Shown: positions 11,685 to 49,540, counted from the first letter of the stretch. The stretch is DNA of 64,000 nucleotides from an uncultured virus (IMG/VR IMGVR_UViG_3300025603_000008) (IMGVR_UViG_3300025603_000008), one strand, 5' to 3'. The notes: generated from the sequence alone by a model not told the origin. Program-made: numbers and translations.

Positions 11685-12956
11685 TCAAGGAATGAATTTT
11701 TTTAAAATCCTTTTGTACCATTTTTCTTTTTCAATTAATTTAATACCTTCAGTTTTTGTTAAAGGCGCTGCTTGAATATGTTTATGGAACATATCTGCGA
11801 CTCTATCCAGAGGTAGCTGGTCATAAATGTGAATAGAAGAAGAACACGAAAAACCACATATTTTTCTCAATATGTTTTCCTGTACCAGAGGAACTAAGTT
11901 TGTTATAAAACTCCTCCTTCCAGTGTGAGCTGATATATTATCATACCCCAACTCTTTTCCTAAATCTTTTATACTGCCAGTCAAAGCAGCATTCCTTGTT
12001 ACTCTTATTGGTGAATCTATAATTTCCACAATAGGAGCCAGTATCGGAATGTAAACTTCGTTGTGCGGTAATTTGTTTGTCTTGAAATTGGCGTATCGAT
12101 AATTATCGCCTTTCTTGATGTTGTTGAAAAAATTGTCAAGGTCGCCAATTCTAATACCTGTGAAAGCCATAATCAATAATGCGCTCTTCGCGTTCTTTAA
12201 TCTCTTCGTCTTAGGCTGGTAATCAATTAACACTTTTAGCTGTTTCCAACTCAAATACTCCTTCTTCTCCTGCTGATAACGAATTAAACGACTCCACTTT
12301 GATTTATCAACCAATAACCCCTTAGAGTCTGCTACGTTCCTAAAACGAATCATCGCTTTTTCATGACTCCATAAGGTGTTGTTGGATAAATTGAAATTAT
12401 TCGCGAGCCAGTCAAAAAAATCGCAAAATACATCATATGTGTATTTTTCCCAGTATAATTTCTTCTCTCTGGTTTTTTCAAACTCTTTTAATCTATTAAA
12501 AACTACTACATAACCCGCTTTCGTCGTATCGGCCAAATCTGACGTCTCAATGTGCTTTTGAATGAACAACACCATCCCATTTAATGGTTTTCCGCTTTTG
12601 TCATCCCCTATAAGCCTCCTGTATCTACTCACGACTAGTTCAGGTGTGGTTTTGTAGTGCTCAGACTTAACTTGCCAATAAGCATTAACCATTTGTGTTT
12701 CTAACTCCTTTATGAAATCACTTAATTCGTTCCCAAACTCTTTACAATACTCTAAGGATGGACACTTGCCCTTCTTGTCCCAGTGCTGAGGGAGAATCTG
12801 CTTCCCCGTTAACAGCCTGATACTCCTGTGTTTGACCTCGTCTGTGTCCACATCGACCTCTTTAAATCCTGCATTCAAAGAGATTTGAATCGCTTTTTTA
12901 GGATTCCCTGGAAGGTTTTTTAAGTTTATCTGGGTTAATGGGTTTAAAGAAGCCAT
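11685..12956 (-). CDS. tyrosine recombinase/integrase, Bacteroidota type (arm-binding + SAM-like + catalytic domains)
   Basis: FTGIRIGD, K, HTGRRSF and C-terminal Y motifs. Second His position reads GFS. Start moved to ATG 12956 because TTG 12980 lies in a TATCTTTG -7 promoter box. Confidence 0.85.
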   Translation of the reverse strand: MASLNPLTQINLKNLPGNPKKAIQISLNAGFKEVDVDTDEVKHRSIRLLTGKQILPQHWDKKGKCPSLEYCKEFGNELSDFIKELETQMVNAYWQVKSEHYKTTPELVVSRYRRLIGDDKSGKPLNGMVLFIQKHIETSDLADTTKAGYVVVFNRLKEFEKTREKKLYWEKYTYDVFCDFFDWLANNFNLSNNTLWSHEKAMIRFRNVADSKGLLVDKSKWSRLIRYQQEKKEYLSWKQLKVLIDYQPKTKRLKNAKSALLIMAFTGIRIGDLDNFFNNIKKGDNYRYANFKTNKLPHNEVYIPILAPIVEIIDSPIRVTRNAALTGSIKDLGKELGYDNISAHTGRRSFITNLVPLVQENILRKICGFSCSSSIHIYDQLPLDRVADMFHKHIQAAPLTKTEGIKLIEKEKWYKRILKKFIP

Positions 12957-13078
12957 AGTGTTTTTAAATTTATAACTCAAAGATACAATATAACTCTAAA
13001 GTAGCTGATTTGATTTTTGAAAAATTCTTAAAAAAAATTTTTGATGCCAACGATACGCGAATGCATATAATTTATGTA

Positions 13079-13360
13079 CATCTAAAAACATCTAAAAACA
13101 TCTAAAAGGTTTTAAAAACATTTAAAAGGTTTTTGAGGGCTCACTTACTGGGAATGATTTGTTTTAGGGGGTGTGATTTACTTTGAAAAATTATAGTAAA
13201 AAATTTTAGAGTGGTCGGGGCGGGTTTTTGGGCAACCCCTTGTTTAGCCCCTTATTAATGATACGCCTATTTAAGCCCCTATTTAAGCCCTTAACCCCTA
13301 TATAGACTCCTAGGGTCTTATTTAGGAGATAGTCTCTCTAAAGGTCTAAATAGGGGCTTG
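13079..13360. repeat. structured non-coding locus: 10-bp phased repeats, 12-bp direct repeat, 13-bp inverted repeat
   Basis: tctaaaaaca/tctaaaaaca/tctaaaaggt/tttaaaaaca/tttaaaaggt (13081-13130), ctatttaagccc x2, aagcccctattta 13273-13285 inverted at 13347-13359. Confidence 0.75.
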
Positions 13361-13417
13361 ATTAGTCTATTGTGGCTAACTTCGATTGTGGCTCTCCCGC
13401 TTTATGATTTGAGCGAA

Positions 13418-13612
13418 TTAATGGGTAGGCAAATCCTCCAGTCTTTTCAAAGCTTTTAAGATGGTTACTTTTTGTTCGTGCATATCAAGGATGCTTTCAA
13501 AATTCTTTTGCAAAATTTGCTTTGCATCTGTTTTATTGAAAGCTGAGAATGGTACTGTTGTAGAGCGGTATACTGCTTTTGTTAGTGCGTCATAGAAACC
13601 TGAAAAATCCAT
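13418..13612 (-). CDS. hypothetical protein
   Basis: Preceded by class I motif 13640-13666. Confidence 0.65.
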   Translation of the reverse strand: MDFSGFYDALTKAVYRSTTVPFSAFNKTDAKQILQKNFESILDMHEQKVTILKALKRLEDLPTH

Positions 13613-13676
13613 ATCGTATTGTTTTGCTGTTCTTATTTTATGAGTTGGTTTGCGGGTCTGGGATGAAAAAACAATA

Positions 13677-13895
13677 TTATCTACGACGGTTTTTACTTTT
13701 ACGTCTTTTACACTTCATCTTCGTGTAATCTCCGCCTGCTGCTTTGAACTTTTTGGCGTTTGAACGCGAAGATTTAGCGTTACTTTTCGAGTGTGACTGA
13801 TAGTTAAAGCCTTTTGTTTTGCTTCGTTGTGACGAGCAAGAGGCGAACGAGCAAGCCATTAGGATTGCTACGAAAATAATTAGTAGTTGTTTCAT
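13677..13895 (-). CDS. small lipoprotein with highly basic tail
   Basis: Signal peptide, FASC lipobox, K/R-rich C-terminus. ATG 7 nt from motif. Confidence 0.7.
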   Translation of the reverse strand: MKQLLIIFVAILMACSFASCSSQRSKTKGFNYQSHSKSNAKSSRSNAKKFKAAGGDYTKMKCKRRKSKNRRR

Positions 13896-13934
13896 GCTTA
13901 TTATGAGTTAACTTAATAGATTGGGATGAAAAAA

Positions 13935-14090
13935 TCAATCAAAACAAATTAGGTGTTTTTCGGTTTTTATTCTTGAAGCGAATACGCTAAGTGTTTGCTC
14001 TCCGTTTGTCACAACGTAAAGTATTCCATTTGTGTGTTCGATAGTGCATTTGACCACACCATCTAAATATACTACATTTCCTTTCTTCAT
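13935..14090 (-). CDS. hypothetical protein
   Basis: Start set by motif (ATG 7 nt downstream). Confidence 0.65.
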   Translation of the reverse strand: MKKGNVVYLDGVVKCTIEHTNGILYVVTNGEQTLSVFASRIKTEKHLICFD

Positions 14091-14136
14091 AACCTTTATG
14101 AGTTGGCTTGGTGGGTTGGGATGAAAAATTTCTTTG

Positions 14137-14352
14137 CTAGTTTGAAAATTTACCAGTTGTACAAGCAAGCAACGCTTTGACCCCCGTAAAGAACATTGAT
14201 AGAAAAAACACGAATATGCACACATCTAATCCAAAAGCTTCATTTTCAGGCTTGCATAGCCTACCTAATTGGTAGATAAAGCCTACACCGCCTGCTATTG
14301 TTATTAAAAATGCGACTAAGTTTGGAGTTGTGTTGGTGTTGGTGATTTTCAT
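14137..14352 (-). CDS. small membrane protein
   Basis: Two hydrophobic segments, motif upstream. Confidence 0.65.
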   Translation of the reverse strand: MKITNTNTTPNLVAFLITIAGGVGFIYQLGRLCKPENEAFGLDVCIFVFFLSMFFTGVKALLACTTGKFSN

Positions 14353-14403
14353 GTCTTTGTGTTTGTTACCCTTTATGAGTTCCATTGGTGGAATAGGATG
14401 GAT

Positions 14404-14799
14404 TTACCCTAAGATATTTATTGCTCCTGAATTGTCGGTTTGAATTACGCCATTTTCTTTTTTCCCAGCTTCTGAGTTTGAAGAAGCGAATATTTCCATT
14501 CGCAAGCTTTGAAGGTCTACACCTGAAAGAATGAAAGACTGTGTTTCTCCTTGCAAGTGGTGAAAATATGCACCATTAGGATAAGGTTTTGTAATAGTCA
14601 CTTTTCCCGTTTCGGTATCAATTTGCCCCATTCGGGTGTCAGATTGAATTTTAATCAATTTGGCATTGCCATCTTTGGCAATGGGGTAAACAATAAAACT
14701 CTGCGACTTGCGCATTTTTGGGAATTTAGCAATAATGCTTTTTGTTCCCATTATGTTCCCTTTGATTTTCTCTATCATGTTTCCGTTTGTTGCTTCCAT
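14404..14799 (-). CDS. hypothetical protein (MEATNGN start)
   Basis: Motif-led. N-terminus shared with 14838..15305. Confidence 0.75.
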   Translation of the reverse strand: MEATNGNMIEKIKGNIMGTKSIIAKFPKMRKSQSFIVYPIAKDGNAKLIKIQSDTRMGQIDTETGKVTITKPYPNGAYFHHLQGETQSFILSGVDLQSLRMEIFASSNSEAGKKENGVIQTDNSGAINILG

Positions 14800-14837
14800 G
14801 ACTATTATGAGTTGGCTTGGTGGGTTGGGATGAAAAA

Positions 14838-15305
14838 CTACGACAACAATTTGTCATAGTCAACAATATCTGTGTACTTCAAAACGTTTCTGTGTTCTTT
14901 GAGTGTTTCGACCCATTTTTGGCAAAAGCGTTGAATCGCCTTAAGTACCGCTTCTTCTGTTTTTAATGGTTTTCTAAATGGTATTTTTACGTTTTTCATT
15001 GCCAAATACTTTTCTTTTCGGTCTTCCATGTTTGGTTTTCTGTAGATAACTCCACCACCATTTCCCCCGTACACTTGTGTTTGCAGTTCTAAACTGTTTA
15101 CACTTAACAATAAAGACACGCATTGAGGAAATTGCCCTCTTACACCATTTATTGCATGGTCATTGGCGGCAAACATTATTCTAATGTAAGGCTCTTTGAA
15201 CATATTTGTTCGCTCTGCAACCTCCTTCCAAACTGATTTAGGAAGATTGTTTTTAAGGATGTTGCTAATTTTAATTGCTAAGATATTTCCGTTTGTTGCT
15301 TCCAT
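14838..15305 (-). CDS. hypothetical protein (MEATNGN start)
   Basis: Motif-led. Confidence 0.75.
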   Translation of the reverse strand: MEATNGNILAIKISNILKNNLPKSVWKEVAERTNMFKEPYIRIMFAANDHAINGVRGQFPQCVSLLLSVNSLELQTQVYGGNGGGVIYRKPNMEDRKEKYLAMKNVKIPFRKPLKTEEAVLKAIQRFCQKWVETLKEHRNVLKYTDIVDYDKLLS

Positions 15306-15353
15306 GCTTCTTATGAGTTGAGTTTTCGTTTCAGGATGAAAAATATCAATGCT

Positions 15354-15746
15354 TTATTCAGCACCGATATAATCATTAATTTGTTCCTCTGAAAGTGAAA
15401 TAGCCGCAAACTTTATTGCGGTTTTAAGCTCAGTAAACCCTTCTGCTTGAAGCGTTTTACCGTTTTTGAAGTGTAGGCAATTCATTTCGGGTGCATAGGC
15501 GTGACGCTCTAATTTTACTACTGCGCTTTCAATGTTCTCAACTCGTTTCAGTCGCTTTTCCCCACGTAGCATTTCGCTCTGAAAATCGTACCCTAAAAGC
15601 AAACTTTTTTCAGTAGAAGCTATTTGGTTTGCATCGTCAACGAAGTACATTTTTTTCATTGCTTCGAGCGACTGTTTTTGATACTTACCTTCTGGGCGCA
15701 AGGCTTGAAGTCTTGCGCTGATAATTTCGTGATTTGTTTGTGTCAT
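15354..15746 (-). CDS. hypothetical protein
   Basis: First ATG downstream of motif 15765. Confidence 0.7.
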   Translation of the reverse strand: MTQTNHEIISARLQALRPEGKYQKQSLEAMKKMYFVDDANQIASTEKSLLLGYDFQSEMLRGEKRLKRVENIESAVVKLERHAYAPEMNCLHFKNGKTLQAEGFTELKTAIKFAAISLSEEQINDYIGAE

Positions 15747-15899
15747 GTTGCTTCGTTTTACCTTATGAGTCAATAGAGACTTATGGGATGAAAAAAGAAA
15801 AAACCTTTATTTCTCATCTTGGTTCGGAAATTCGACTCATACGTTATGGAAATGTGTTTTGCAAAAAGAGTCAAAGCAAAAAGGGAATGACCCTTTTTT

Positions 15900-16127
15900 T
15901 TAAATGTTATTGTTTTGACAAAAGTTGTCATAAAAAGCATCATCTTGGGCTTGAATAAAATTTCCCAAAGACTTTGATTCACTTTCGCTTTTGAAACGTG
16001 CTGAATTTGCACTATATACTTTTCGTTCAGATGCGTCATAAAAAACTTCTGTTCCTTTTTTGACTTGAGTGTTTAATTCAGCACACTTGCTTGTGAACTT
16101 TGCGGTAATAAATCGTCCTTTATTCAT
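15900..16127 (-). CDS. hypothetical protein
   Basis: Motif-led, followed by hairpin 15878-15901. Confidence 0.7.
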   Translation of the reverse strand: MNKGRFITAKFTSKCAELNTQVKKGTEVFYDASERKVYSANSARFKSESESKSLGNFIQAQDDAFYDNFCQNNNI

Positions 16128-16170
16128 ACTTTTTATGAGTTGGCTTGGTGGGTTGGGATGAAAAATACTA

Positions 16171-16323
16171 TTAAAGGATAATGCCTAACTCTGCATTCAT
16201 AAGATAGCTATACATTTTAACACCAACTTTTTTAAGTTGTAATCCTTTTTTTTCTGCGAGCCTTAATCTTGTGGCAAAGATTAAATCTTTGCCTACGTTC
16301 TTACTTCTGTAGTTGTATTCCAT
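16171..16323 (-). CDS. hypothetical protein
   Basis: Downstream of motif 16348. Confidence 0.6.
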   Translation of the reverse strand: MEYNYRSKNVGKDLIFATRLRLAEKKGLQLKKVGVKMYSYLMNAELGIIL

Positions 16324-16365
16324 GTTGCGTTGCTTTGTTCTCTTTTCATGAGTCAAGTCAATCCT

Positions 16366-16710
16366 TTAGGATGTAAAAAGTGTAAAATCTTCCTGTGTTT
16401 CTTTTATACATTCAAGCGTTAACTTAGATGTTGAATTTATATTTTCCCAATGTCGTGGGGCTGAACTTCCTTTTTCATCTTCAAAAACAACAAACCAATA
16501 ATAACCACCGTCCCAAAAATGGATGTTTACTGAATTTACCGTATAAATTTTGTTACTGTTCTTTTTTTTGAATTTCTGACCATACAAAGGATGCTCTTCT
16601 ACTCTTCCATTTTTGCCCATTTTTCTGCGTAGGGCGAAGCAGTATAATTCGTCACGATTTCCTGAGCGTGCGCTAAATACTTTTCTGTAGTGTTCACTGT
16701 TAAATGCCAT
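16366..16710 (-). CDS. hypothetical protein
   Basis: Motif-led. Stop lies inside next motif. Confidence 0.7.
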   Translation of the reverse strand: MAFNSEHYRKVFSARSGNRDELYCFALRRKMGKNGRVEEHPLYGQKFKKKNSNKIYTVNSVNIHFWDGGYYWFVVFEDEKGSSAPRHWENINSTSKLTLECIKETQEDFTLFTS

Positions 16711-16735
16711 AACCTCTATGAGTTGGTTTTGTGGA

Positions 16736-17029
16736 TTAGGACGAAAACGTTTTTACTATTTCTGACTTTCCACTTAAATACACATTTCCTTTTCTTGAAA
16801 CTATTTCTGCGCTGCTTGCCCATAGCCAGCCGCATTTATAAGAATTATGTTGTGTTATCTTTTCTTGGGTAATTTCCATAGTTTCACCGCTAATAACTCT
16901 ATCTGAGCCTTCTACTTTTACATTCTCTACGTCTACATTTTTGTATAGACTAGCATACCTTTGTTTGTCTTGGTATGTAAGTTTAAACCCTTTAGATACA
17001 TACTCTTCTATTGCTTTGTTCATGTCCAT
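16736..17029 (-). CDS. hypothetical protein
   Basis: Motif-led. Stop lies inside next motif. Confidence 0.7.
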   Translation of the reverse strand: MDMNKAIEEYVSKGFKLTYQDKQRYASLYKNVDVENVKVEGSDRVISGETMEITQEKITQHNSYKCGWLWASSAEIVSRKGNVYLSGKSEIVKTFSS

Positions 17030-17084
17030 GCTTTTAATGAGTTCGGAATTAAGTCTGGGATGAAAAAAGAAAATTCTTTGTTTC

Positions 17085-17187
17085 TCATCCTGGTTCGGGG
17101 ATTCGACTCATTCCTTGTGGAAAACCGCTTTACTTGGCTTGTTTATTTGTTTCTTTTTTTTCATCCTACTATCGAAAGTTAACTCAT
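17085..17187 (+). ncRNA. conserved double-promoter module, possible short RNA or micro-ORF (copy 1)
   Basis: Motif with TTCGGGGATTCG spacer, then TCCTTGTGGAAAACCG, T-rich tract, second motif 76 bp later. Repeated at 26670, 39207, 54744. Confidence 0.4.
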
Positions 17188-17300
17188 AATAAGCATGAAA
17201 CCAAACGGGCGTTTTCACGTATATTATAAAGAAACCATAAGTTTCTTCAATTAAACCAAAGTTTTTTCGTCCTAACAAAACAAGTCAACTCATAGAAGGC

Positions 17301-17963
17301 ATGGAAGCAAAAAAAATCACTAAAGCACAATTCATCGAAATGATGAAATCGCAAAAAGGCGCAACTTTTTCGGGCTTAACATATCACGTAGACGAAAGCA
17401 AGTCACGAACTATTAACAAGAAGAAAGCACTTCAAAAAACGGTAAATACCGTAGCAACGCTTAATAGCATTTATCAAGCTAAAATCGACCGTATCTTAAC
17501 TGAGAAGGGGTTAAATTTCGATTGGACACCAAATAAAATGACGGGGCGTTCGTATGACGCAAACGACAAAAATCGTTGCATTGTCCACAAAGATAAAAAT
17601 CCTGATATTCAATACCTTTGCTTTGTATCCGAGGCACACAGCAAGCCGCAAACGCAATTGTTTAGCAACGGTCAGCCCGTTGAACGTAAAGATGTTTGGA
17701 ACGCTGACTACATAACCAATTCTGGATTGACGCAAAACGACAAAAAAGCCGCACAAAATTCCATGTTCAACCACGCATTAAAGCAATCGGCAATAGCCGA
17801 AAACGAAGGAAACACCGAACTTGCTAACGAATTACGAACGAAAGCAAACGCCATAGCAAACCTTGAAGAGTTTCAAAAGTTAGAGTTTATGTTTCGCACC
17901 GTTCAAATCGAGAACATTATTGGAGCGCGATTAGGTGGCGAAAGCTACATCATCGAGGGGTAA
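17301..17963 (+). CDS. hypothetical phage protein (duplicated)
   Basis: Motif-led, identical to 18683..19345. Confidence 0.85.
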   Translation: MEAKKITKAQFIEMMKSQKGATFSGLTYHVDESKSRTINKKKALQKTVNTVATLNSIYQAKIDRILTEKGLNFDWTPNKMTGRSYDANDKNRCIVHKDKNPDIQYLCFVSEAHSKPQTQLFSNGQPVERKDVWNADYITNSGLTQNDKKAAQNSMFNHALKQSAIAENEGNTELANELRTKANAIANLEEFQKLEFMFRTVQIENIIGARLGGESYIIEG

Positions 17964-17985
17964 GCTTCCCTAACAAAAAATAGTG

Positions 17986-18019
17986 CAAGGAACGGGCTAG
18001 AAATGGCTCGTTCCTTTTT
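17986..18019. terminator. intrinsic terminator (copy at about 19368-19401)
   Basis: aaggaacgggc-tagaaatg-gctcgttcctt-tt. Confidence 0.7.
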
Positions 18020-18161
18020 GGCTACCTCTCCCTCGTTGGCATGGTTTTCCATAAGGTATGAGTGCAATTGGCGGGTTGGGATGAGAAACCGAACAACAAA
18101 TAAAAGACAAATTTCCATTGATGTAATTCATCCTACTAGCTCTCCCTGACTCATAGATGGT

Positions 18162-18326
18162 ATGATTGATTTATTCTCTACACCACTTTCCAAGACGAAA
18201 ATAAGAAACGGGATATTTGCTTACAAATATTCCAACGGCACTATCAACATAGAGGGTCACAAATACCTTATGTGTTCTATCAAATATGCCGTCAAAGATT
18301 GGAGGGCAAATAATCCAGTCAGATAA
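18162..18326 (+). CDS. 54-aa hypothetical protein (not in ORF track)
   Basis: ATG 7 nt after motif 18128, stop just before identical motif 18328. Confidence 0.7.
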   Translation: MIDLFSTPLSKTKIRNGIFAYKYSNGTINIEGHKYLMCSIKYAVKDWRANNPVR

Positions 18327-18361
18327 TTCATCCTACTAGCTCTCCCTGACTCATAGATGGT

Positions 18362-18571
18362 ATGACGACAGACGAGCAACAAATGATTGAGAAATTCGGA
18401 ACGGAGCAAGTTCACATTGATACCATTCGATTTGGTGACACAGTTATCCACAATGGAGCGATGCGGACTGTAAGCAAAACGTTTATATCGTATGGCGGAT
18501 TTATGGGAACGTCTTTATGGGGTGATTCATACCACTCAGGATATAAGAGTGTCACGAAAGTCAACTCATAA
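18362..18571 (+). CDS. hypothetical protein
   Basis: Motif-led. Ends in ACTCAT half-site at duplication junction. Confidence 0.7.
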   Translation: MTTDEQQMIEKFGTEQVHIDTIRFGDTVIHNGAMRTVSKTFISYGGFMGTSLWGDSYHSGYKSVTKVNS

Positions 18572-19515
18572 TAAGCATGAAACCAAACGGGCGTTTTCAC
18601 GTATATTATAAAGAAACCATAAGTTTCTTCAATTAAACCAAAGTTTTTTCGTCCTAACAAAACAAGTCAACTCATAATAAGCATGGAAGCAAAAAAAATC
18701 ACTAAAGCACAATTCATCGAAATGATGAAATCGCAAAAAGGCGCAACTTTTTCGGGCTTAACATATCACGTAGACGAAAGCAAGTCACGAACTATTAACA
18801 AGAAGAAAGCACTTCAAAAAACGGTAAATACCGTAGCAACGCTTAATAGCATTTATCAAGCTAAAATCGACCGTATCTTAACTGAGAAGGGGTTAAATTT
18901 CGATTGGACACCAAATAAAATGACGGGGCGTTCGTATGACGCAAACGACAAAAATCGTTGCATTGTCCACAAAGATAAAAATCCTGATATTCAATACCTT
19001 TGCTTTGTATCCGAGGCACACAGCAAGCCGCAAACGCAATTGTTTAGCAACGGTCAGCCCGTTGAACGTAAAGATGTTTGGAACGCTGACTACATAACCA
19101 ATTCTGGATTGACGCAAAACGACAAAAAAGCCGCACAAAATTCCATGTTCAACCACGCATTAAAGCAATCGGCAATAGCCGAAAACGAAGGAAACACCGA
19201 ACTTGCTAACGAATTACGAACGAAAGCAAACGCCATAGCAAACCTTGAAGAGTTTCAAAAGTTAGAGTTTATGTTTCGCACCGTTCAAATCGAGAACATT
19301 ATTGGAGCGCGATTAGGTGGCGAAAGCTACATCATCGAGGGGTAAGCTTCCCTAACAAAAAATAGTGCAAGGAACGGGCTAGAAATGGCTCGTTCCTTTT
19401 TGGCTACCTCTCCCTCGTTGGCATGGTTTTCCATAAGGTATGAGTGCAATTGGCGGGTTGGGATGAGAAACCGAACAACAAATAAAAGACAAAATTCCAC
19501 CGTTGTAATTCATCC
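18555..19515 (+). repeat. about 961-bp direct duplication, copy 2
   Basis: See 17173..18133. Confidence 0.9.
18683..19345 (+). CDS. hypothetical phage protein (duplicate)
   Basis: Identical to 17301..17963. Confidence 0.85.
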   Translation: MEAKKITKAQFIEMMKSQKGATFSGLTYHVDESKSRTINKKKALQKTVNTVATLNSIYQAKIDRILTEKGLNFDWTPNKMTGRSYDANDKNRCIVHKDKNPDIQYLCFVSEAHSKPQTQLFSNGQPVERKDVWNADYITNSGLTQNDKKAAQNSMFNHALKQSAIAENEGNTELANELRTKANAIANLEEFQKLEFMFRTVQIENIIGARLGGESYIIEG

Positions 19516-19543
19516 CAACTCTCCCTTTGAACTCATAGAAGGC

Positions 19544-19771
19544 ATGGCGGAAATAAAAGAATGGTATCAAGAAGAATTCCCAACAGATGAATTGGGTGCG
19601 GAAATCAACCCAACAGTAACCTTTGAAGATTTGAAAGAGAATCTACCAAACGTTTACGATTGTTTGGGTGTGAGTGATTCACTTGTAAGAGAAAGAGTTT
19701 TCACTAAACTAGCAAACCTATTAAGTGTGGGTTATGACGAGATTTATTATGAATGGTTGAATAATGATTAA
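19544..19771 (+). CDS. acidic hypothetical protein
   Basis: Start set by motif 19510. Confidence 0.75.
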   Translation: MAEIKEWYQEEFPTDELGAEINPTVTFEDLKENLPNVYDCLGVSDSLVRERVFTKLANLLSVGYDEIYYEWLNND

Positions 19772-19812
19772 AGTTTTTTCATCCCAAAGAAGATAACCAA
19801 CTCATAAAGGGC

Positions 19813-20064: not shown

Positions 20065-20099
20065 TTCATCCCAGTAAACAAAACGAACTCATAAAGAGC

Positions 20100-20555: not shown

Positions 20556-20592
20556 ATTTCATCCTAACTCTCCCTTTGAACTCATAAGAAGC

Positions 20593-40404: not shown

Positions 40405-40429
40405 ACTCTCCCTTGAACTCATAAACATC

Positions 40430-40759: not shown

Positions 40760-40784
40760 ACTCTCCTTTGAACTCATTAACGGT

Positions 40785-41551: not shown

Positions 41552-41586
41552 TTCATCCCAAACAACACTCTTAACTCATAAGCAGC

Positions 41587-41817
41587 ATGAATAAGATAGA
41601 AGTAAAACATTTAGAAAACAAAGATATTGACATTGTTGTGGAAGGTAAATCGTATGCAAAGCTGTTAAGAAAAGCAGATATTTCAGAAGGTTATGATATT
41701 ATTTTAGACTTTGAACCCAATGAAGATTTCATTGCCACAGCAGGTTCTTTAATGTATGCAACGTATATCGTAAAAAATCAGATAGAATCTTGTTTTGATT
41801 TAACTTTATCTTTTTGA
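41587..41817 (+). CDS. hypothetical protein
   Basis: Motif-led. Confidence 0.65.
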   Translation: MNKIEVKHLENKDIDIVVEGKSYAKLLRKADISEGYDIILDFEPNEDFIATAGSLMYATYIVKNQIESCFDLTLSF

Positions 41818-42356
41818 TTTTTAGGGTATTCTTTTTGTTTTGAAGAAATGTGTTTATCATCAAAAAAAGGAATTATAAACTTTCTGCTTTTAACCAAAGA
41901 ATAGAAGTCGTTTCTATCTTGAATTCCCATCCCTGAAAATGAGATTTTTCTATTTTGAATTGTTTTTTCTCCTTGAATATATGACCATTCAAAATAATAT
42001 CCTTCTTGTGATTCTTTTTTCTCTCCAAAAATAACAGACTCTTGTTCATACTTAAGACCCATCTCAATAACTTGCTCTTTGCTGATGTTTGGGACAAGCA
42101 AGCTATTTTCCTTCATTTCGTAACTTCCGCCTATTTTTATAAACCCCAACCCCATTGAGTTTATTTGGCTTTTGAGTTGTCTCATTTTAATGCTGTTATC
42201 TTGTGTAGTAGCTTCTTGTCCGTATGGGTTTTCAGCAGTTAAAATTCCAATTGAATCGACACTAGCAACACCACCTTGCATCATATTTCTAACTCTTGAG
42301 AAACCTGACATCTCATCAACTGTTTCTTTTATTATATTCACAATTTCGCTTCTCAT
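41778..42356 (-). CDS. DUF3293-like phage protein, counter-oriented, probable late gene
   Basis: ILTAENP...G.Y...E.S...G.KY.QES pattern, IIKE N-terminus, TATTTA upstream. Confidence 0.65.
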   Translation of the reverse strand: MRSEIVNIIKETVDEMSGFSRVRNMMQGGVASVDSIGILTAENPYGQEATTQDNSIKMRQLKSQINSMGLGFIKIGGSYEMKENSLLVPNISKEQVIEMGLKYEQESVIFGEKKESQEGYYFEWSYIQGEKTIQNRKISFSGMGIQDRNDFYSLVKSRKFIIPFFDDKHISSKQKEYPKNQKDKVKSKQDSI

Positions 42357-42424
42357 TAAAATAAGTTTTTAAATAAATAGAAACCAAAATTCATTCCAAA
42401 CAAAACTCTTAACTCATGAGGAAT

Positions 42425-42715
42425 ATGGAACACTACCTACACTCAGACGACACAGAGGAACTAATTAAATCATTTAAAAAGTTCGACAAGGCGGCAATCA
42501 AGGCGGCAATCATATCGCACTTAGAAGCGAACCCAAAAGACACAATCGAGTACTCCAAGGATTTTTCTTTGGAAGACCAAAAGAAGTATTCAGGAACAGA
42601 CATCCTAGACTTCTATTGCAACAACCCAAAATCTGGTAACCCTTGTAAAATGATATTCAAAGGAGAAAAGACTTTCTACAAGAAACTCATCCCAGACTCT
42701 CCCTTAAACTCATAA
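42425..42715 (+). CDS. hypothetical protein
   Basis: ATG 7 nt after motif 42391. Confidence 0.7.
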   Translation: MEHYLHSDDTEELIKSFKKFDKAAIKAAIISHLEANPKDTIEYSKDFSLEDQKKYSGTDILDFYCNNPKSGNPCKMIFKGEKTFYKKLIPDSPLNS

Positions 42716-42720
42716 GCAGC

Positions 42721-43638
42721 ATGAGCTACGAAATCATTTACGACAAGCAATTTATCAAACTGGAACGCAAAGACCAGCCGACTGTATTCATACCAATGAT
42801 ATACGCAGGCTCAAGCAATTGCTATGACATGGTTTACGACCGAAACGGACGCCAGCGAGAACGACGAGAAAGAAGTTGGTTTTGTTTTGAATTCATTTGT
42901 GGCGGCAATCACTTCGACACACAGGAGTCTATGCTGCAACGTCAACAGGAATTCAGAGACGACAAAGCAATTCAGGACGAAGAATCAATCGCTTTGCACG
43001 GATTGTACGACGATAAGAAATTCGGCTATTGGTCATCATTGGCAATAGGAGGCTCAACAAGAAACACGACTTTTGGTCAGTACCAAGGCGTTGTGAAAAC
43101 AGGGTGCAAGAACGCCTTCACCATTGAGGAGCTTTTTGAAGAAAACATTCACCTTTCAATCTCAACTGGAAGCGACTATTACAGCAAAGACAAATTCGAA
43201 GCTGCAGGATTCAGTTCGTTTTCAGTCACACCCAAGACAACTGAGGAATTCTTTTCTATGCTGGAAGACTTTCTAGCCAAGACACAGCCGCACGGTATCC
43301 CTTGCTTTCTCTCCCTGGACGTAAGCGAAGACAACTTAAAACGATTCAGGAAGAACACCAGACCACAGCGAAGAAAGATTACTACATCGATAGAAACCAG
43401 TCTTTGGTACACAATCGATATTAAAGAGCTAGGTGCGTTTATCAAGTTCACCAGCAGGTCGACTAGATACTCACACACGGATAGTGGTGGACTTAAATTC
43501 ACCGACAAAGCGAAGGCGCTCAAGAAGCTGGAACACGTCAAAAAAGCATTGAGCTGGAGACAGTACACAATCTCCCTGAAAACTCACACAACTCCAACGT
43601 GGATAAATGTGACCAGCTACGAAAAAGTAGAAAACTAA
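42721..43638 (+). CDS. hypothetical protein
   Basis: 305 aa, motif-led. Confidence 0.8.
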   Translation: MSYEIIYDKQFIKLERKDQPTVFIPMIYAGSSNCYDMVYDRNGRQRERRERSWFCFEFICGGNHFDTQESMLQRQQEFRDDKAIQDEESIALHGLYDDKKFGYWSSLAIGGSTRNTTFGQYQGVVKTGCKNAFTIEELFEENIHLSISTGSDYYSKDKFEAAGFSSFSVTPKTTEEFFSMLEDFLAKTQPHGIPCFLSLDVSEDNLKRFRKNTRPQRRKITTSIETSLWYTIDIKELGAFIKFTSRSTRYSHTDSGGLKFTDKAKALKKLEHVKKALSWRQYTISLKTHTTPTWINVTSYEKVEN

Positions 43639-43705
43639 TCCATCCCAGACTCTCCCTTGAACTCATAAGGAGAGAACAACAAAACAACCAAGCAACCAAG
43701 CAATT

Positions 43706-43921
43706 ATGGAAATGACAATCAACACATTCCTTTTTCAAGGCATAAAAGTAAGAGAGTTTACGAATTTAGACCCAGATGTTTCTGGGGTAGAAGTGTATCA
43801 AAACGGCAATCATCTTGGCTCAATTGTAGGAGAGTCCATCCCAGATGAAGAAGATAAAGACGCTACGGCAGGATTCGCCTCTATGTTAGAAGATTGGCTG
43901 GTGGATAATTGTGAAAACTAA
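43706..43921 (+). CDS. acidic hypothetical protein
   Basis: Motif upstream. Confidence 0.7.
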   Translation: MEMTINTFLFQGIKVREFTNLDPDVSGVEVYQNGNHLGSIVGESIPDEEDKDATAGFASMLEDWLVDNCEN

Positions 43922-44378
43922 AACTCATCCCAGCAGGTTAGTTCAACTCATTTAACTTAAATTCAATAAAATGAAAATCTCAAAAATATTCACAATGGGC
44001 ATTAAGATACTACTCCTTTTAGTTTTTCTTGTGGTAGGTCTTGAGCATCTTCTTAATTTTTTTTAATTCATCAGCAACATGAAAGTAATAGATTATCTAG
44101 GAGCAGAAGGTTCTTGCATCGTAATAGAACAGCCTACAGACATTTTTCCATTATTAGATTGGGCGCATAGTCGAATGATAGAAAAACAAGAAAAAGCAAA
44201 AGGAAGCGTCAATGTAGAAAAGTGGAAAAATGCTATAGACTTCTTGGCAAAGCAAATGGAGGAAGCTGAAGCTGAAGGGTTTGGAAGCATGGACAATGTG
44301 GAAGAAATTGATTATTAATTCAATTTGATAATTGTGAAAACTAAAACTCATCCCAGCAGGTTAGTTCAACTCATTTAA
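43904..44378 (+). repeat. 52-bp direct repeat (gene end + class I motif) at 43904 and 44327
   Basis: gataattgtgaaaactaaaactcatcccagcaggttagttcaactcatttaa x2. Confidence 0.85.
44079..44318 (+). CDS. hypothetical protein
   Basis: Between the 52-bp repeats. Confidence 0.65.
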   Translation: MKVIDYLGAEGSCIVIEQPTDIFPLLDWAHSRMIEKQEKAKGSVNVEKWKNAIDFLAKQMEEAEAEGFGSMDNVEEIDY

Positions 44379-44434
44379 GGTATAAAGAAATTAAATTCTA
44401 AATTGCGTCAAAATATTCACTAACCTGTACTCCT

Positions 44435-44626
44435 ATGAAAATTGAACAATTTAATCTAGCAAGGCAAATTCGCGGGTTAATTGACGAAGTGAATACGGCA
44501 AAATCACAATTGCGAAAGATGAAAATCCGTGAAGAGGATGAAGAATTTAACGAGGCTCTTAAACTGGCACAAAGTGCTACAAGCTATTCAATAACTCGTT
44601 TGGAAGAGGATTTTGATAATTTGTAA
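44435..44626 (+). CDS. hypothetical coiled-coil protein
   Basis: ORF. Confidence 0.6.
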   Translation: MKIEQFNLARQIRGLIDEVNTAKSQLRKMKIREEDEEFNEALKLAQSATSYSITRLEEDFDNL

Positions 44627-44691
44627 CACATTGACTAATAAAAAAGATTTTGATAATTTGTAACACATTGACTAATAAAAAAGTTTTGATT

Positions 44692-44856
44692 ATGAATGAA
44701 CACGTAAATTACTTTAATGAGGAAATACAAAGCAAACTCGAACAACTTCCAAGAGCTATAGAAGGCAATTCAAGCAAGAAAGAGTTAAAAAGAATTTGTA
44801 GGGAAATACGAATTTTGAAAGACGCACGAGAGTATTTTCTGTATAACGCTGTTTAA
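44692..44856 (+). CDS. hypothetical protein
   Basis: ATG after a tandem repeat of about 38 bp. Confidence 0.55.
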   Translation: MNEHVNYFNEEIQSKLEQLPRAIEGNSSKKELKRICREIRILKDAREYFLYNAV

Positions 44857-44928
44857 ACTCATCCCAAAAAGAATAATCGACTCATAAACAATATCGGCAT
44901 AAGCCACAGCATTTAATACCTAAAAATA

Positions 44929-45345
44929 ATGGGATATACTCACTATTACACGCTAAAAGAAAAGCCAAACGCATCTAAGTTCAAAGCGTTTAGCGAAGAC
45001 TGCAAAAAGATTGCGGATGACTGCAATAAAAACGGAATAGTTGTCTGCGGTGGCGAAGGCGAAGGCGCACCAGTCATTAATGAGAATGTTGTTGCAATCA
45101 ACGGAGATAAAACAAGAGGTCAAGACCACGAAACGTTTTATGTCTCCACAGATGAAGACGGTTTCAACTTCTGCAAGACTGCTGAAAAAGAGTACGACCC
45201 CGCAGTGACAGCAATGCTAGTTGCGTTGAAGCAACATTACCCTAGTGCGGAAATCTCGTCAGATGGTGAACAGGAGGGTTTCGAAGAAGGAATTGCAATT
45301 TGTGAAAGATTGCTCGGTTACGGCTCTAACTTCAAAGTAGACTGA
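44929..45345 (+). CDS. conserved phage protein (MGYTHY...FNFCKT...YD), distant paralog of 58577
   Basis: Shared pattern with 58577..59158. Confidence 0.8.
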   Translation: MGYTHYYTLKEKPNASKFKAFSEDCKKIADDCNKNGIVVCGGEGEGAPVINENVVAINGDKTRGQDHETFYVSTDEDGFNFCKTAEKEYDPAVTAMLVALKQHYPSAEISSDGEQEGFEEGIAICERLLGYGSNFKVD

Positions 45346-45355
45346 GAGTAACTTG

Positions 45356-45401
45356 GAAACAAAAAACCTTTCTGACCGTATAATTAAAATACGGTCAGAA
45401 A
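45356..45401 (+). promoter_or_regulatory. class II promoter embedded in an inverted repeat upstream of the tRNA
   Basis: gaaac-N16-cgtata, tttctgaccgtat...atacggtcagaaa. Confidence 0.6.
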
Positions 45402-45402
45402 T

Positions 45403-45475
45403 GGCTCTTTAGCTCAGTTGGTTAGAGCAACGGACTTTAAATCCGTGGTCACGAGTTCGAGTCTCGTAGGAGTCA
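45403..45475 (+). tRNA. tRNA with UUA anticodon (ochre suppressor, Lys-like body)
   Basis: GGCTCTT/AGGAGTC acceptor, GCTC/GAGC D stem, ACGGA-CTTTAAA-TCCGT anticodon arm, ACGAG-TTCGAGT-CTCGT T arm. Confidence 0.8.
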
Positions 45476-45518
45476 CAACTTTTTTCATCCAAAACTCTCC
45501 CTTCAACTCATAAGCAGC

Positions 45519-46283
45519 ATGAAAGAAATTAAGCCAGTTAAAGATATAGGATTTTGTGGAGTTGACTCAGGTCAAATTCTGATAGTTGACCCGAAACTGT
45601 TCTCGGAGAACTGGAGTGAAGAAGAATTCCAAGACGAACGAAAGTATATCCACAAGGAAACTGGAGACCGTCTTAACTACCAAGAACACTTTGCCAGCTT
45701 CGCAGCTATTCTTGAACCATACGGCAAAGACATGAATGCAATGATTAAGGCTGAAGAAGTCATGTTGTTGCCACGAACCCCAGCGAAAGAAGTTCTTTCA
45801 TACAATTCTTGCTGCTTAGCAACGCTAGAATCCGCTTTCGGTATACTGGGAGATGGAATAGCAGTAGCAACAAGAACTGGTGTGGGAGATGGAAGTTATC
45901 ACGTGTTTCCTCTGGAGACAAAAGACGGAGTCCAGAAAGGAGTACAAATTGTATTCTTGGAAGAATTCGACATCACGAAAGCCTTGACAGATTGTGAAGG
46001 AGAAATCAAATGCGAGTCTGGAATGATAATGTTTGCAGACCCTTGCTACTCCAGAAGCCAAGAAAATTTAACCCCAGAAGCCATAGCACTCAAAATGAAT
46101 GCTACACGTGGCAAAGGTGCTGCACAACTAAACTACGACAAAGGACACGAAGGGTTAGGTGTGCTTGTAGAAGCGGAAATAGGAAACTATGACGTGTACA
46201 TCCATAAGGAAGAATACATTCCAGAAGGAGACAGTTGGGGCGAAAGAGTATTTGGTGTTGTTCTTGTAAAATCAGAAGATTAA
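45519..46283 (+). CDS. DUF4241-like protein
   Basis: GVDSGQI...DP and G.GDG.Y.V motifs, two repeats. Confidence 0.65.
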   Translation: MKEIKPVKDIGFCGVDSGQILIVDPKLFSENWSEEEFQDERKYIHKETGDRLNYQEHFASFAAILEPYGKDMNAMIKAEEVMLLPRTPAKEVLSYNSCCLATLESAFGILGDGIAVATRTGVGDGSYHVFPLETKDGVQKGVQIVFLEEFDITKALTDCEGEIKCESGMIMFADPCYSRSQENLTPEAIALKMNATRGKGAAQLNYDKGHEGLGVLVEAEIGNYDVYIHKEEYIPEGDSWGERVFGVVLVKSED

Positions 46284-46360
46284 TTCATCCCACAAACTCT
46301 CCCTGACTCATAACTGGCAATGTAAAATGCTTTTTTAATAAACAAATAAAGAAAATAATC

Positions 46361-46798
46361 ATGGGAAGTTTCAGCTGGAATAAAGCAGACAAGCTAACAA
46401 AAATAGAAAATGTGGCTCACGAAAGTCTCTTCAAATTTCTAATACCCAAGGAGTTTGGAGGTGGTTTTATCAAAGACACTTACCAAGACTACGGGCGTTT
46501 AGGTGCAAAAGAAAATGGAATGCCTAAATACGATATGTATGAATTACAAGCCTTTTGGAATAATGCTGAAGGCTTGTTATTTGATGGTGAAAAGCCTTTG
46601 ATGAAAGAGATTGATGAATACACAGAAGACAACAGAATTAAAGGCTTATCTATTGGATGCTACGATGAAGAAATATTGAAGCTAAAATATCCACTAAAAT
46701 TGGTTTCTGAGTCTTACGAAGGTACTTATGAAGATTTGGAAACCTGTAGTTTAGGAGACCCCGACCAAGGTTTTGGCAGTAGGAAACGTAAACTGTAG
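46361..46798 (+). CDS. hypothetical protein
   Basis: ORF. Confidence 0.75.
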   Translation: MGSFSWNKADKLTKIENVAHESLFKFLIPKEFGGGFIKDTYQDYGRLGAKENGMPKYDMYELQAFWNNAEGLLFDGEKPLMKEIDEYTEDNRIKGLSIGCYDEEILKLKYPLKLVSESYEGTYEDLETCSLGDPDQGFGSRKRKL

Positions 46799-46843
46799 AT
46801 AACGCTTTCTCATCCCAACAAAAGAACTCAGCTCATAGAGGAT

Positions 46844-47740
46844 ATGAACACAGCAACGCAAAACATCGACAAAGCTTTTTTGGAAAGCAAATCATTCGAA
46901 TGCCTCACTCAATGGAACGGAGGAAAATATCCCGTGATATGTGAAGCGGCAAGCGGAAACATTGCTCGTATATCTGACAATGTATTCAGTTTTACCCAGT
47001 ATAATTTCTTGCCAACCAGCTTAGACGGCAAAACACCTGCAGATGACATCTTGGACGGACACTTCACATTCTACGTGAATGTCGATACGTTTGAATACTT
47101 AGCTTACAGGAGTGCTGGGTATGCAAACTTCACTTCGGTTACATCAGTTGAATTCAACGGTTTCTACACCAAAGAAGCTTTGCCTGAATTAAGCCGAAAG
47201 CGAATTGAATCTGTTATTGCTCACAAGCTACTGGGAGCTTATTTTCACGACAGCAACGCTGTGAATCAAAATGGTGCAAACCTCATCGAGCCTCAAACTC
47301 CAGAACCAGCTGGAAACAATTTTAATAAAGATATTATGCGTCACCGAGGATTCAAACAATCCTTGATTTGCGATAACCGTGGATATGTCTGGTGTGACTA
47401 CAAGCCTGAAACACTTTGCGATGCTGACCTGCTCGCTTTGTCTACTTTAGACAGTTGGACACCGCCTGAACTCCCTGAATTCCCTGAAGACCTCTTAAAA
47501 TCGCTTAGAAGCAAATTAACTTCTGGTAAAAAAGGAGTGGCTCGCCAAATAGATTTCGAATTCGCTGGTCTCTCCCTGAGTATCGCACACTACATTGACC
47601 CTATCTATGGCAATAGAACATCTTTGGGTACAGCTGAAGATGTGGTGTTATCTGGGATGTCGACCAAGCACTCGCTGACAAAGTTCATTCGACTTATCCC
47701 TGAGATTCTTAGGAATTACTCATCCGACAACCTCAAGTAG
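46844..47740 (+). CDS. hypothetical protein
   Basis: Motif-led, stop in next motif. Confidence 0.8.
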   Translation: MNTATQNIDKAFLESKSFECLTQWNGGKYPVICEAASGNIARISDNVFSFTQYNFLPTSLDGKTPADDILDGHFTFYVNVDTFEYLAYRSAGYANFTSVTSVEFNGFYTKEALPELSRKRIESVIAHKLLGAYFHDSNAVNQNGANLIEPQTPEPAGNNFNKDIMRHRGFKQSLICDNRGYVWCDYKPETLCDADLLALSTLDSWTPPELPEFPEDLLKSLRSKLTSGKKGVARQIDFEFAGLSLSIAHYIDPIYGNRTSLGTAEDVVLSGMSTKHSLTKFIRLIPEILRNYSSDNLK

Positions 47741-47753
47741 ACTCATTGAAGCC

Positions 47754-48044
47754 ATGATAACAAGCGACAGCATAACATATGGAGACAGCGTTTATGGCGG
47801 AAACCAAACCTACTGGCAAAGCGTTCTCTTTGAAGGCAAAGAAGTCGGTGCACTTGCAACCAAGCAAGGTAGCATATTGAAGCCGCTAACGGAATGGCAT
47901 CAGATATGTGTAGAAGATACGCAGGCAAACCAAGACGCCGCTGACAAATGGTACATCTCTGAGGACTTGGGCTTCATTTTCATTGTGTTCTACACTTTGG
48001 ATAAAATGATTTCCTACCTGAACTCATCCCAAAAGCAACCTTAG
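47754..48044 (+). CDS. hypothetical protein
   Basis: Motif-led. Confidence 0.75.
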   Translation: MITSDSITYGDSVYGGNQTYWQSVLFEGKEVGALATKQGSILKPLTEWHQICVEDTQANQDAADKWYISEDLGFIFIVFYTLDKMISYLNSSQKQP

Positions 48045-48057
48045 ACTCATAAACCAC

Positions 48058-48483
48058 ATGGAAGACCTATCAAAAATATTAGATACCTACAAAATACACA
48101 CAGAATTCTACGACAAAAAGCGTATCGCTGTTGAGCGGGCGCAAGCAAGGTTTGAGAAGGCAGGGGCAAAGCTTGGAATCAATACCAACATTGCCACACC
48201 GCTTGCAATCTTAATCAAAGACCGCCTTCAGGGTGACTCTTACGATGCAATGGGCCCTTTTGGTTTATCCAATGAATGCGGAATCAGTGTGAAAAAAGAA
48301 GGCTCAAAAGACAGCATCTTTTATGTAAGCCTCCAGATTGGCGTGGGTGAAGACGGAGAAAGTGTGCTATTGTTCCTAAAAGGCTATGACACACAATGGA
48401 ATAACAGAGAAAAGCTTGTTGACGCCACCGATTGGGACATTGATAAGATAATTGCGTTTAGTGATAATGACTGCAAAATATAA
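48058..48483 (+). CDS. hypothetical protein
   Basis: Motif-led. Confidence 0.75.
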   Translation: MEDLSKILDTYKIHTEFYDKKRIAVERAQARFEKAGAKLGINTNIATPLAILIKDRLQGDSYDAMGPFGLSNECGISVKKEGSKDSIFYVSLQIGVGEDGESVLLFLKGYDTQWNNREKLVDATDWDIDKIIAFSDNDCKI

Positions 48484-48857
48484 ACTCATCCCAGAATTAA
48501 AACCAAACTCATATGCGGGTTCAACTGGGAAGCTAGTTGCGACAAGAATTTGGGAAGGTGGCGACACAATTGACCAAATCACTATCGAAGACGGTGTGGT
48601 CATCGAAGAAACAATCGAACTGTAATTCATCCCAACCCAAAGTAACGGTGAACGTCATAAAATTAGGCACACCGATTCCATCCCACAAACTCTCCCTGAC
48701 TCATAAGCGGTATGAAAAATACAGAAAACATAACTGAGGCACTTAGCATTCCACACGAAATGCTAAACAAAACAATTAATGGGGCTTTTTTGTTAAAATT
48801 AACAAGAACTACTCAGCAACCGTAAAAAACCTTTCTTCATTCATTGATTACATTCAG

Positions 48858-49247
48858 ATGTACTCACATGACCTAGACGAGAGTTTTGGGGAAATTGAAA
48901 AGGATTCTAAAGAAGATTATGATTTCTATAATCACCTATTAGAGGTTATCTGCTATGTAAACGGATTCGCAAAATTTAATACAAATCCGCACCAATTTGT
49001 TGAGTTGAAAAATGAAAAAGAAACAGTTTCCATTAGAACTAAAAGCGGGAAGCTAGTCACTATATGCTTCTCAGAACTCTCTAGGAGCGCAGACGTGGTA
49101 CTTCACAACTCTGGAATGCAATCAATCGACAATGGTTCTCCAGTCCCTCAGTTTGAGGTTATGGGCTTAAAGTGTGGCGAAACTCCTATTAAGTCAACTC
49201 CCGTAACTATAAGTGTTATCCAGTTAGGGAAAAAAATCTCATCTTAA
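48858..49247 (+). CDS. hypothetical protein (possibly frameshifted from start 48712)
   Basis: Motif 48678 points to ATG 48712 in a short upstream ORF. Confidence 0.6.
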   Translation: MYSHDLDESFGEIEKDSKEDYDFYNHLLEVICYVNGFAKFNTNPHQFVELKNEKETVSIRTKSGKLVTICFSELSRSADVVLHNSGMQSIDNGSPVPQFEVMGLKCGETPIKSTPVTISVIQLGKKISS

Positions 49248-49272
49248 ACTCTCCCTTCAACTCATAGAAATC

Positions 49273-49503
49273 ATGGCAAACGAAAAAACATATTACAATC
49301 ACGCATTCGACCTAGGTTTTACAGTAATGTCAACCAGTCCCAATGGTGAAGCAAGCAATGAAGAAATCATGACAGGTCTTCGCAGACGTTTAGCGTCTTT
49401 GGAATCAAACCCTGATGATATTCAGGAATCCGCAAGCTGTTACGACCCCTCGGATGAACCAACCACTCAAGAAGAATACGATAAGTGGAAAAACCAGAAA
49501 TAG
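49273..49503 (+). CDS. hypothetical protein
   Basis: Motif-led. Confidence 0.75.
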   Translation: MANEKTYYNHAFDLGFTVMSTSPNGEASNEEIMTGLRRRLASLESNPDDIQESASCYDPSDEPTTQEEYDKWKNQK

Positions 49504-49540
49504 TTCTCATCTTAAACTCTCCCTTCAACTCATAGAAATC

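Follow-up and report, generated by a model that had tools for sequence, protein, structure and literature searches.

Gene gain, loss and duplication at a repeated promoter-like motif in an uncultured salt-lake phage

How are single genes gained, lost and duplicated in a phage in which about one hundred copies of one short motif head the genes? The question is raised by the uncultured virus IMGVR_UViG_3300025603_000008, from which one stretch of 64,000 nucleotides (nt), here called the window, was analyzed. A sequence-only reading of this stretch had taken the motif for a promoter whose copies mark rearrangement breakpoints, and it had proposed an integron-analogous shuffling of promoter cassettes next to a tyrosine recombinase. 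The two halves of this proposal fared differently. Duplications ending in the motif, identical adjacent promoters, and one promoter+gene unit lost at the motif were observed; this single clean natural case and the strong statistical clustering support shuffling at a modest level. The integron analogue run by the recombinase was not supported, as neither a fixed crossover point nor a fold of the motif was found. The window is phage-like DNA and was found in 20 salt-lake metagenome runs from 2017-2019. Joints and depth in the population were read from the assembled Logan contigs of four runs (X5, X7, X12, and X20), in which depth is a single figure per contig.

The pattern CATCC-N16-CTCAT occurs 92 times in the window, against 0.07 copies expected from shuffles, and a slightly relaxed pattern retrieves 100-101 copies, 87 on the + strand and 14 on the - strand. 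The copies range from about 13.6 kb to the window end, with none left of 13400 and 86 within 11685-49533, and every copy has the same direction as the gene behind it. Twelve head the - strand genes of a leftward array (13640..17062), and most of the 87 + strand copies head the + strand genes of a rightward array (17086..61971), which extends well past 49533. The consensus reads TttTCATCC(c/t)A, about 13 variable bases, and aACTCATA; the N16 spacing is kept in 86 of the 87 + strand copies and in all 14 - strand copies. An ATG opening an open reading frame (ORF) of at least 30 amino acids (aa) starts 7 nt after CTCAT in 51 of 100 copies, 17-62 nt after it in 30, and 2 or 5 nt after it in three, with none in the remaining 16. 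At the other end of the genes, the stop codon falls inside the following motif or no more than 15 nt ahead of it in 55 of 126 ORFs (a crude list), so the motif is nearly the entire intergenic space. Contigs with more than one motif were found neither in IMG/VR nor in the species genomes; a search with the N16 spacing gave 17 matches, against 61 single matches for a chance control with a spacing one base longer. A literature search found no paper that names the CATCC-N16-CTCAT motif.

The motif is probably a two-part promoter with the boxes TCATCC(C/T)A and ACTCAT(A/T) at a fixed spacing. The rigid box spacing, the T-rich stretch before the first box, and the 6-7 nt from the second box to the ATG point to a promoter of the extracytoplasmic function (ECF) type, with transcription starting at the A of the ATG or beside it. 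In the window, the paired boxes with their fixed spacing of 16-17 nt are accompanied by a group 4 sigma gene (61107-61727, + strand; Pfam Sigma70_r2, Sigma70_r4_2, and Sigma70_ECF; PHROG 1740), a candidate reader of the motif. No motif was seen in the inspected sequence upstream of this gene. The phage's own ECF-type sigma factor probably reads the motif, and because the motif stands so near the ATG, about half of the motif-headed genes would have leaderless mRNAs. A terminator-like hairpin was detected just upstream of 13 of 100 copies, compared with 25 of 2,000 random positions in a control; thus, most copies would be promoter-only units of about 35 nt, not composites of about 100 bp.

The exchange of a whole promoter+gene unit was seen in a natural variant. 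A scan of metagenomes, covering at least 115 loci, gave one contig of the same phage among the matches listed. This Joint Genome Institute (JGI) contig, Ga0207997_1013015, has 3,587 bp, holds loci L232 and L233, and runs collinear to window 29383-25324; over its 1,053 bp, L232 matches the window at 99.7% identity. The contig lacks 476 bp corresponding to window 25409-25884 (+ strand), which comprise the 3' part of promoter 25389, the gene 25423-25809 (128 aa), and the 5' part of promoter 25865, and L233 joins 25865 to 25424. The junction consists of the left flank of promoter 25389, the 20 nt shared by both promoters (TCATCCTAAAAGCTATCAAT), and the diagnostic base and right flank of promoter 25865. 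These flanks and the diagnostic base place the 476-bp crossover inside the motif. No 31-mer is repeated at the 25389/25865 junction, yet in X7 and X12 the Logan contigs have their first base precisely at 25865, whereas an X5 contig reads through it; the pattern fits long and short forms living together at 25.4 kb. Across 25.4-25.9 kb, depth drops as it would if the cassette were missing from about 50% of the population in X7, 25% in X12, 80% in X20, and 0% in X5; with a single depth figure per contig, these values are consistent with such a mixture and no more.

Neighboring promoters resemble each other in the variable spacer far beyond chance. Fourteen adjacent pairs have spacers that differ at no more than 2 of 16 positions. 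The permuted mean was 1.48 pairs, and none of the 10,000 permutations reached 14; the count omits the two motif copies inside the 961-bp duplicate described below. All the identical and near-identical neighbors listed by the sequence-only reading were recovered. The genes between near-identical adjacent promoters are not paralogues. For example, the identical promoters 18129 and 18329 flank a 54-aa gene at 18162-18326 (18124..18365, + strand), and four identical promoters (29944, 30272, 30734, and 31516) stand before unrelated genes (29939..31559, + strand). The identity tracts around 36 near-identical motif pairs have scattered ends, mostly 0-11 nt to the left and 0-20 nt to the right. Additionally, a CTCTCC spacer type was found in 31 of 98 motif copies; with about a third of the copies sharing it, many motif pairs have 26-40 nt in common. 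Spacer identity between neighbors is what a homology-dependent crossover predicts, and not what would follow from a recombinase that needs the conserved boxes only.

Duplications give the third line of evidence. The largest joins 17173..18133 (copy 1) and 18555..19515 (copy 2), both on the + strand; the 961-bp copies are 99.2% identical and differ at 8 positions. Copy 1 holds a small ORF, promoter 17268, a 220-aa gene (17301-17963), and a - strand promoter with a short predicted transcript. The duplication had been said to start in one motif and to end at the TCATCC of another. Indeed, the right ends of both copies stop at ..GTAATTCATCC of motifs 18129 and 19511, with diverging spacers thereafter, and the left end of copy 1 lies within the spacer of motif 17162. 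Copy 2 retains only the 3' half of motif 17162, without TCATCC, so its start is not a whole motif. The smaller duplications reported at 29278/29860, 29361/29819, and 43904/44327 were found within a few bases of those positions and are bounded by motifs. Two of them surround the gene 29414-29836 (29271..29952, + strand): a 100-bp repeat (29271-29370 / 29853-29952; 96% identical), which ends after TCATCCCAAC, and a 44-bp promoter repeat (29361-29404 / 29819-29862; 95% identical). The third is a pair of identical 52-nt repeats at 43904 and 44327 (43904..44378, + strand), consisting of a promoter and 16-22 nt upstream.

An all-against-all protein comparison returned five whole-gene paralogous pairs (17301/18683, 20593/23409, 21476/32872, 21912/28653, and 22293/31549), and the order is shuffled for the last three. 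One paralogous cassette, made up of a promoter, a 106-aa gene, and the next promoter (20557..20952, + strand), has 77% DNA identity with 23373-23768. The duplicated and polymorphic genes had no match that would suggest a function, either in Pfam at E up to 1 or in a protein atlas. Gene ends also carry the mark of the motif. The C-termini SSQLSL (genes 22293 and 31549), IPDSPLNS, IPQDN, and EISS are encoded by the next motif, as had been pointed out, and the two SSQLSL genes are paralogues with 53% identity. The shared first codons, MEATNGN in 14404 and 14838 and MAQPL in 33924 and 35589, were likewise found. Separately, a perfect 63-nt direct repeat (31291-31353 / 31387-31449) lies inside gene 31213-31455, and in run X5 a different sequence replaces 31151-31453.

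Some promoters form a special class, with a G+C-rich conserved spacer, GGTTCGGGGATTCGA, followed by ATGGAAAACCG and then a short T-rich or hairpin-ended stretch. Members were found on the + strand at 15806-15925, 17077-17196, 26662-26781, 39199-39318, and 54736-54855, and on the - strand at 17973-18092 and 19355-19474. A normal promoter follows about 76 nt later in four of six aligned copies, and one member opposes the direction of the leftward genes. These units may be small RNAs, tiny hydrophobic peptides, or insulators. At 35808-35880 (+ strand), three promoter copies overlap as a 23-nt tandem, in which the ACTCAT of one copy begins the (C)TCATCC of the next because TCAT occurs in both boxes.

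Other variants were found in the population. In X7, X12, and weakly X20, a second haplotype leaves the window at 18561, continues with 10 letters foreign to the window and a third promoter of the 18129/18329 type, and resumes at 19667. It lacks the 961-bp copy 2, and it shows that a stop of its own, located before a promoter, once closed gene 18362-18571. Two weak joints were not counted as firm: 28845->31173, seen in one run with a side of 22, and 23038->23375, seen in X5 only, whose right side lies at the 5' edge or first bases of TCATCC. Among the population variants, two have one side at a motif, and one well-supported and one weak variant lie outside motifs. The backward joint 26712->18555 was considered as an excised circle and rejected; it is explained by copy 1, which lies outside the stretch compared, and contigs cannot show rare circles. 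At 37996-38051, just after promoter 37952, the X5 and X20 contigs have several different continuations, and the X5 depth rises to 73 from about 16 nearby; the site may be hypervariable or may contain a sequence common to other elements. At 21790, all four runs carry 12 extra letters (ATGAACAACTAC) relative to the window, at full depth.

We consider it fairly likely that the array is a leaderless variant of the promoter-cassette shuffling of T4-type phages, driven by homology, with a promoter that probably serves a phage ECF-type sigma factor. The roughly 100 promoter copies would act as scattered short homologies, or 'linkers', since they fill the intergenic space and about a third of them share 26-40 nt of near-identity. 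An exchange between two copies would delete, duplicate, or insert a whole promoter+gene unit, by homology- or microhomology-dependent recombination or by replication slippage, and a working promoter would stay before the next gene. Ordinary illegitimate events would happen alongside in the same region, and selection for intact genes would add to the apparent concentration of junctions at motifs. The enzymes behind the recombination are inferred.

Several observations weigh against this reading. There is a single clean motif-to-motif gain or loss, documented by one metagenome contig with indirect support from contig ends and depth, and the evidence consists of variants within a population and not of a related genome. 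Several junctions did not arise by homologous exchange between two motifs. As the second haplotype reveals, the 961-bp copy 2 has a left end that joins the end of gene 18362-18571 to the non-conserved spacer of motif 17162 through a 7-nt microhomology, CGAAAGT, and the left end of the 100-bp repeat lies at an AAAGA microhomology 15 nt after a motif. Additionally, a 1,255-bp segment (20125..21379, + strand) is missing in part of the population; neither end of the joint 20124->21380 is in a motif, and 2 nt are shared. This joint occurs in four of four runs, and in X7 and X12 its depth plus the depth of the skipped contig equals the flanking depth; its shorter side has 28 letters, just below the caution line. 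Among the metagenome variants, the gain/loss junction thus falls in the motif at 25409-25884 and outside motifs at this deletion. The Pfam and PHROG scans found no recombination gene of the RecA, RecT, or Erf type in the window. Finally, promoter function, leaderless starts, and the link to the sigma factor are themselves predictions from the DNA.

These same junctions lend some weight to a different explanation, namely that random illegitimate events only seem bound to motifs because the motif is practically the sole non-coding DNA, and that identical neighboring promoters are leftovers of local tandem duplications. With the intergenic space taken up by the motif, surviving junctions would end up in it through selection for intact genes alone. 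The 1,255-bp deletion, the 7-nt joint of the 961-bp copy, and the AAAGA junction are what such events would leave, and the stop codons at or just before the next motif in 55 of the 126 ORFs show how little room there is elsewhere. However, the 476-bp loss crosses over inside a 20-nt identity of two promoters, and the genes flanked by identical promoters are non-paralogous. Moreover, the identity spans the variable spacer and extends a few bases beyond it, which suggests that promoter copies exchanged sequence. Survivorship on its own is thus possible, and we regard it as rather unlikely.

The tyrosine recombinase beside the array raises another explanation, in which this enzyme, or some other unrecognized phage protein, cuts and joins at TCATCC and thereby excises and re-inserts promoter+gene circles, as in an integron. 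The gene, a divergent member of its family, lies at 11685..12980 on the - strand (PHROG 216 integrase, E 1.2e-7), and its true start is probably an ATG about 7 codons in. Its Pfam PF00589 score is 17.5 bits, below the cut-off of 27.1, and no PDB match was found by sequence. Aligned with four homologues at 25-28% identity, R276, K302, H351-x-x-R354, and Y385 are invariant among these five sequences, and the H/W position (second His) is occupied by F. A recombinase with R, K, HxxR, and Y beside the array is the first point in favor of such excision. The second is the recurrence of one boundary: the 5' edge or first bases of TCATCC bound the 961-bp and 100-bp repeats on the right and the 44-bp repeat on the left, and this edge also occurs at the right side of the X5 joint 23038->23375 and at the start of the 476-bp crossover interval. 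These recurrent boundaries are the only hint of site-specific excision.

The remaining boundaries, however, lie after TCATCCCAAC, in the spacer, 1, 5, or 15-17 nt after CTCAT, 16-22 nt upstream, or outside motifs altogether, in addition to those after TCATCC. Together with the scattered tract ends, these varied ends of the duplications indicate that crossovers do not share one position in the motif. Dyad symmetry and inverted repeats are absent from the motif, and single-stranded folding gave no hairpin in five of five copies (0 to -1.4 kcal/mol; z-scores -0.75 to +1.45). The variable spacers common to neighbors are not predicted by a crossover at the box. The position of the gene, whose nearest motif is 660 nt away, does not fit either, since it lies at the downstream end of the leftward genes, in their direction, and not divergent from the array. 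It has, instead, a repeat-rich site of its own: a 437-nt non-coding gap (12981..13417) with no motif and no ORF of at least 40 aa, in which ACATCTAAAA is repeated four times in tandem with a 10-bp period and CCCCTATTTA occurs three times with inverted copies. Direct and inverted repeats of this sort are typical of attachment or control regions, and the gap is a candidate attachment or regulatory site.

The relatives of the recombinase point in the same direction. The recombinase is not IntI-type, its homologues carry PF13102, and the family marks islands of Flavobacteriales; at 21-30% identity, relatives were found in Flavobacteriales genomes, mainly Crocinitomicaceae and Fluviicola. The linkage of recombinase and array that had been expected in relatives was not found, as the motif array is absent at all 41 loci (564 kb) around them. 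In the three loci examined more closely (L276, L278, and L279), the relative has housekeeping genes on one side and an accessory island on the other. L276 has an HTH_17 (Xis-like) gene beside the relative, L278 has one about 5 kb off, and none was found in L279; the islands carry defense genes, CBASS-like in L278 and SMC/AbiEii-like in L279. No tRNA gene was found beside the integrase relatives in 16 loci. In the Flavobacteriales loci L263-L288, single metagenome-assembled genomes contain two or three relatives, and the relatives often lie near contig ends. By its sequence, the recombinase is an ordinary integrase of the Flavobacteriales island type, and it probably acts on the adjoining repeat-rich site and not on the promoters. 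Excision at TCATCC by a dedicated enzyme is therefore very improbable.

Lastly, repeated promoters could have misled the assemblers into apparent duplications and cassette loss, since Logan contigs break at nearly every promoter pair sharing at least 31 nt and the JGI contig begins inside a repeated promoter, but this is hardly credible: the 961 bp have 1.2-1.9 times the depth of their flanks in four of four runs, which shows that the duplication does not stem from misassembly, all four runs cover the left junction of copy 1 at full depth, the copies differ at the 8 positions given above, the identity at the 476-bp junction is limited to 20+15 nt and would not confuse k-mers of at least 23, and contigs of two further runs branch at the same base.

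No match to window 1-12000 was found among phage records, and Pfam matches with E of at most 0.001 were limited to 12 of 142 window ORFs. The window encodes an integrase and ParB-like proteins, and the phage is probably temperate, with a host that is probably from the Bacteroidota. The Pfam and PHROG scans detected no T4 core gene in the window, and the best matches of one protein, at 45%, were to large cyanomyoviruses; the phage is probably unrelated to T4-type phages. Window 1-11640 holds about 28 tightly packed small ORFs, mainly on the + strand, with zero motif copies, and its family matches are limited to a PARG-like domain (3096-3839) and phrog_4301 (8423-9091); it is a differently regulated module of the same element. 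At 56872-57387 (- strand), the C-terminal 171 aa of a TnpB/Cas12f-like protein (OrfB_IS605 and TNB domains) lie opposite in strand to, and between, the ParB-like genes 55879-56724 and 57408-57914; the fragment looks like an insertion sequence remnant.

ARAGORN called a tRNA with the anticodon TTA, which would read the stop TAA, at 45403-45476 (+ strand). The anticodon loop is regular in appearance, and a promoter copy follows 9 nt after the end of the gene. Readthrough of TAA extends many frames, yet other codes do likewise, and a clear sign of recoding was not seen; none of the alternative genetic codes extends the window ORFs in a manner suggesting it. Two tRNA-Glu(TTC) and one tRNA-Met were also called at 50485-50882 (- strand), within the rightward gene array.

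The closest known system is that of the promoter-early stem-loops (PeSLs), described for the T4-type phages RB49/phi1, T4/PST, and KVP40/nt-1 (PMC2839356; PMC4122927). Arbiol et al. proposed homologous exchange between cassettes that targets gains and losses to gene boundaries (PMC2839356). Both systems repeat a conserved promoter cassette before many small, mostly ORFan genes, here in 92-101 co-directed copies. RB49 ORF192 is a gene flanked by two cassettes where a close variant has a single cassette (PMC2839356), a pattern matched here by 25409-25884. By contrast, the motif here is not sigma-70-like but has the boxes TCATCC / ACTCAT, probably for an ECF-type sigma factor, and about half of the genes would be leaderless. 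The PeSL is a composite of promoter and stem-loop of about 100 bp, whereas only the 13 of 100 copies noted above have a hairpin beside them. Furthermore, this phage carries integrase and ParB-like genes and shows no T4 core gene in the window.

The modular evolution of Botstein and Campbell, with conserved 'linker' sequences, and moron accretion are discussed in the same work (PMC2839356). Here too, short conserved intergenic sequences are the exchange points for self-expressed single-gene modules. The linker, however, is one promoter with about 100 copies per genome, and the evidence comes from variants within a population and not from a comparison of lambdoid phages.

The authors of the PeSL papers themselves likened the cassettes to integrons and noted that no recombinase was known (PMC2839356; PMC4122927). 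The likeness holds here for the single-gene units split by a repeated element, the nearby tyrosine recombinase gene, and the gain or loss of single units. In integrons, however, attC lies at the 3' end of promoterless cassettes, whereas the repeat described here is at the 5' end of its unit and is, by our reading, its promoter. The motif has no attC-like hairpin or dyad and no fixed crossover point, and the array is bidirectional and at least 50 kb long. Unlike IntI, which is divergent with attI and Pc between, the recombinase here is of the Bacteroidota island-integrase type, downstream of the array and in the same direction. A further parallel is the Thermus phage phiYS40, whose middle and late transcripts are leaderless, with promoters directly against the start codons. 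Its host group and promoter sequence are unlike those considered here, and we know of no claim of cassette shuffling for it.

Taken at the strength given above, these results would show promoter-mediated modular shuffling, a process described to date in T4-type phages, in a probably unrelated phage with another type of promoter. Cassette-plus and cassette-minus variants were seen in a natural population sampled over several years. If site-specific excision at TCATCC were true, the array would be a phage-borne, promoter-based counterpart of the integron. The system is also a clean natural setting in which to test whether short regulatory repeats can sustain the turnover of an accessory gene pool by themselves, with no dedicated recombinase.

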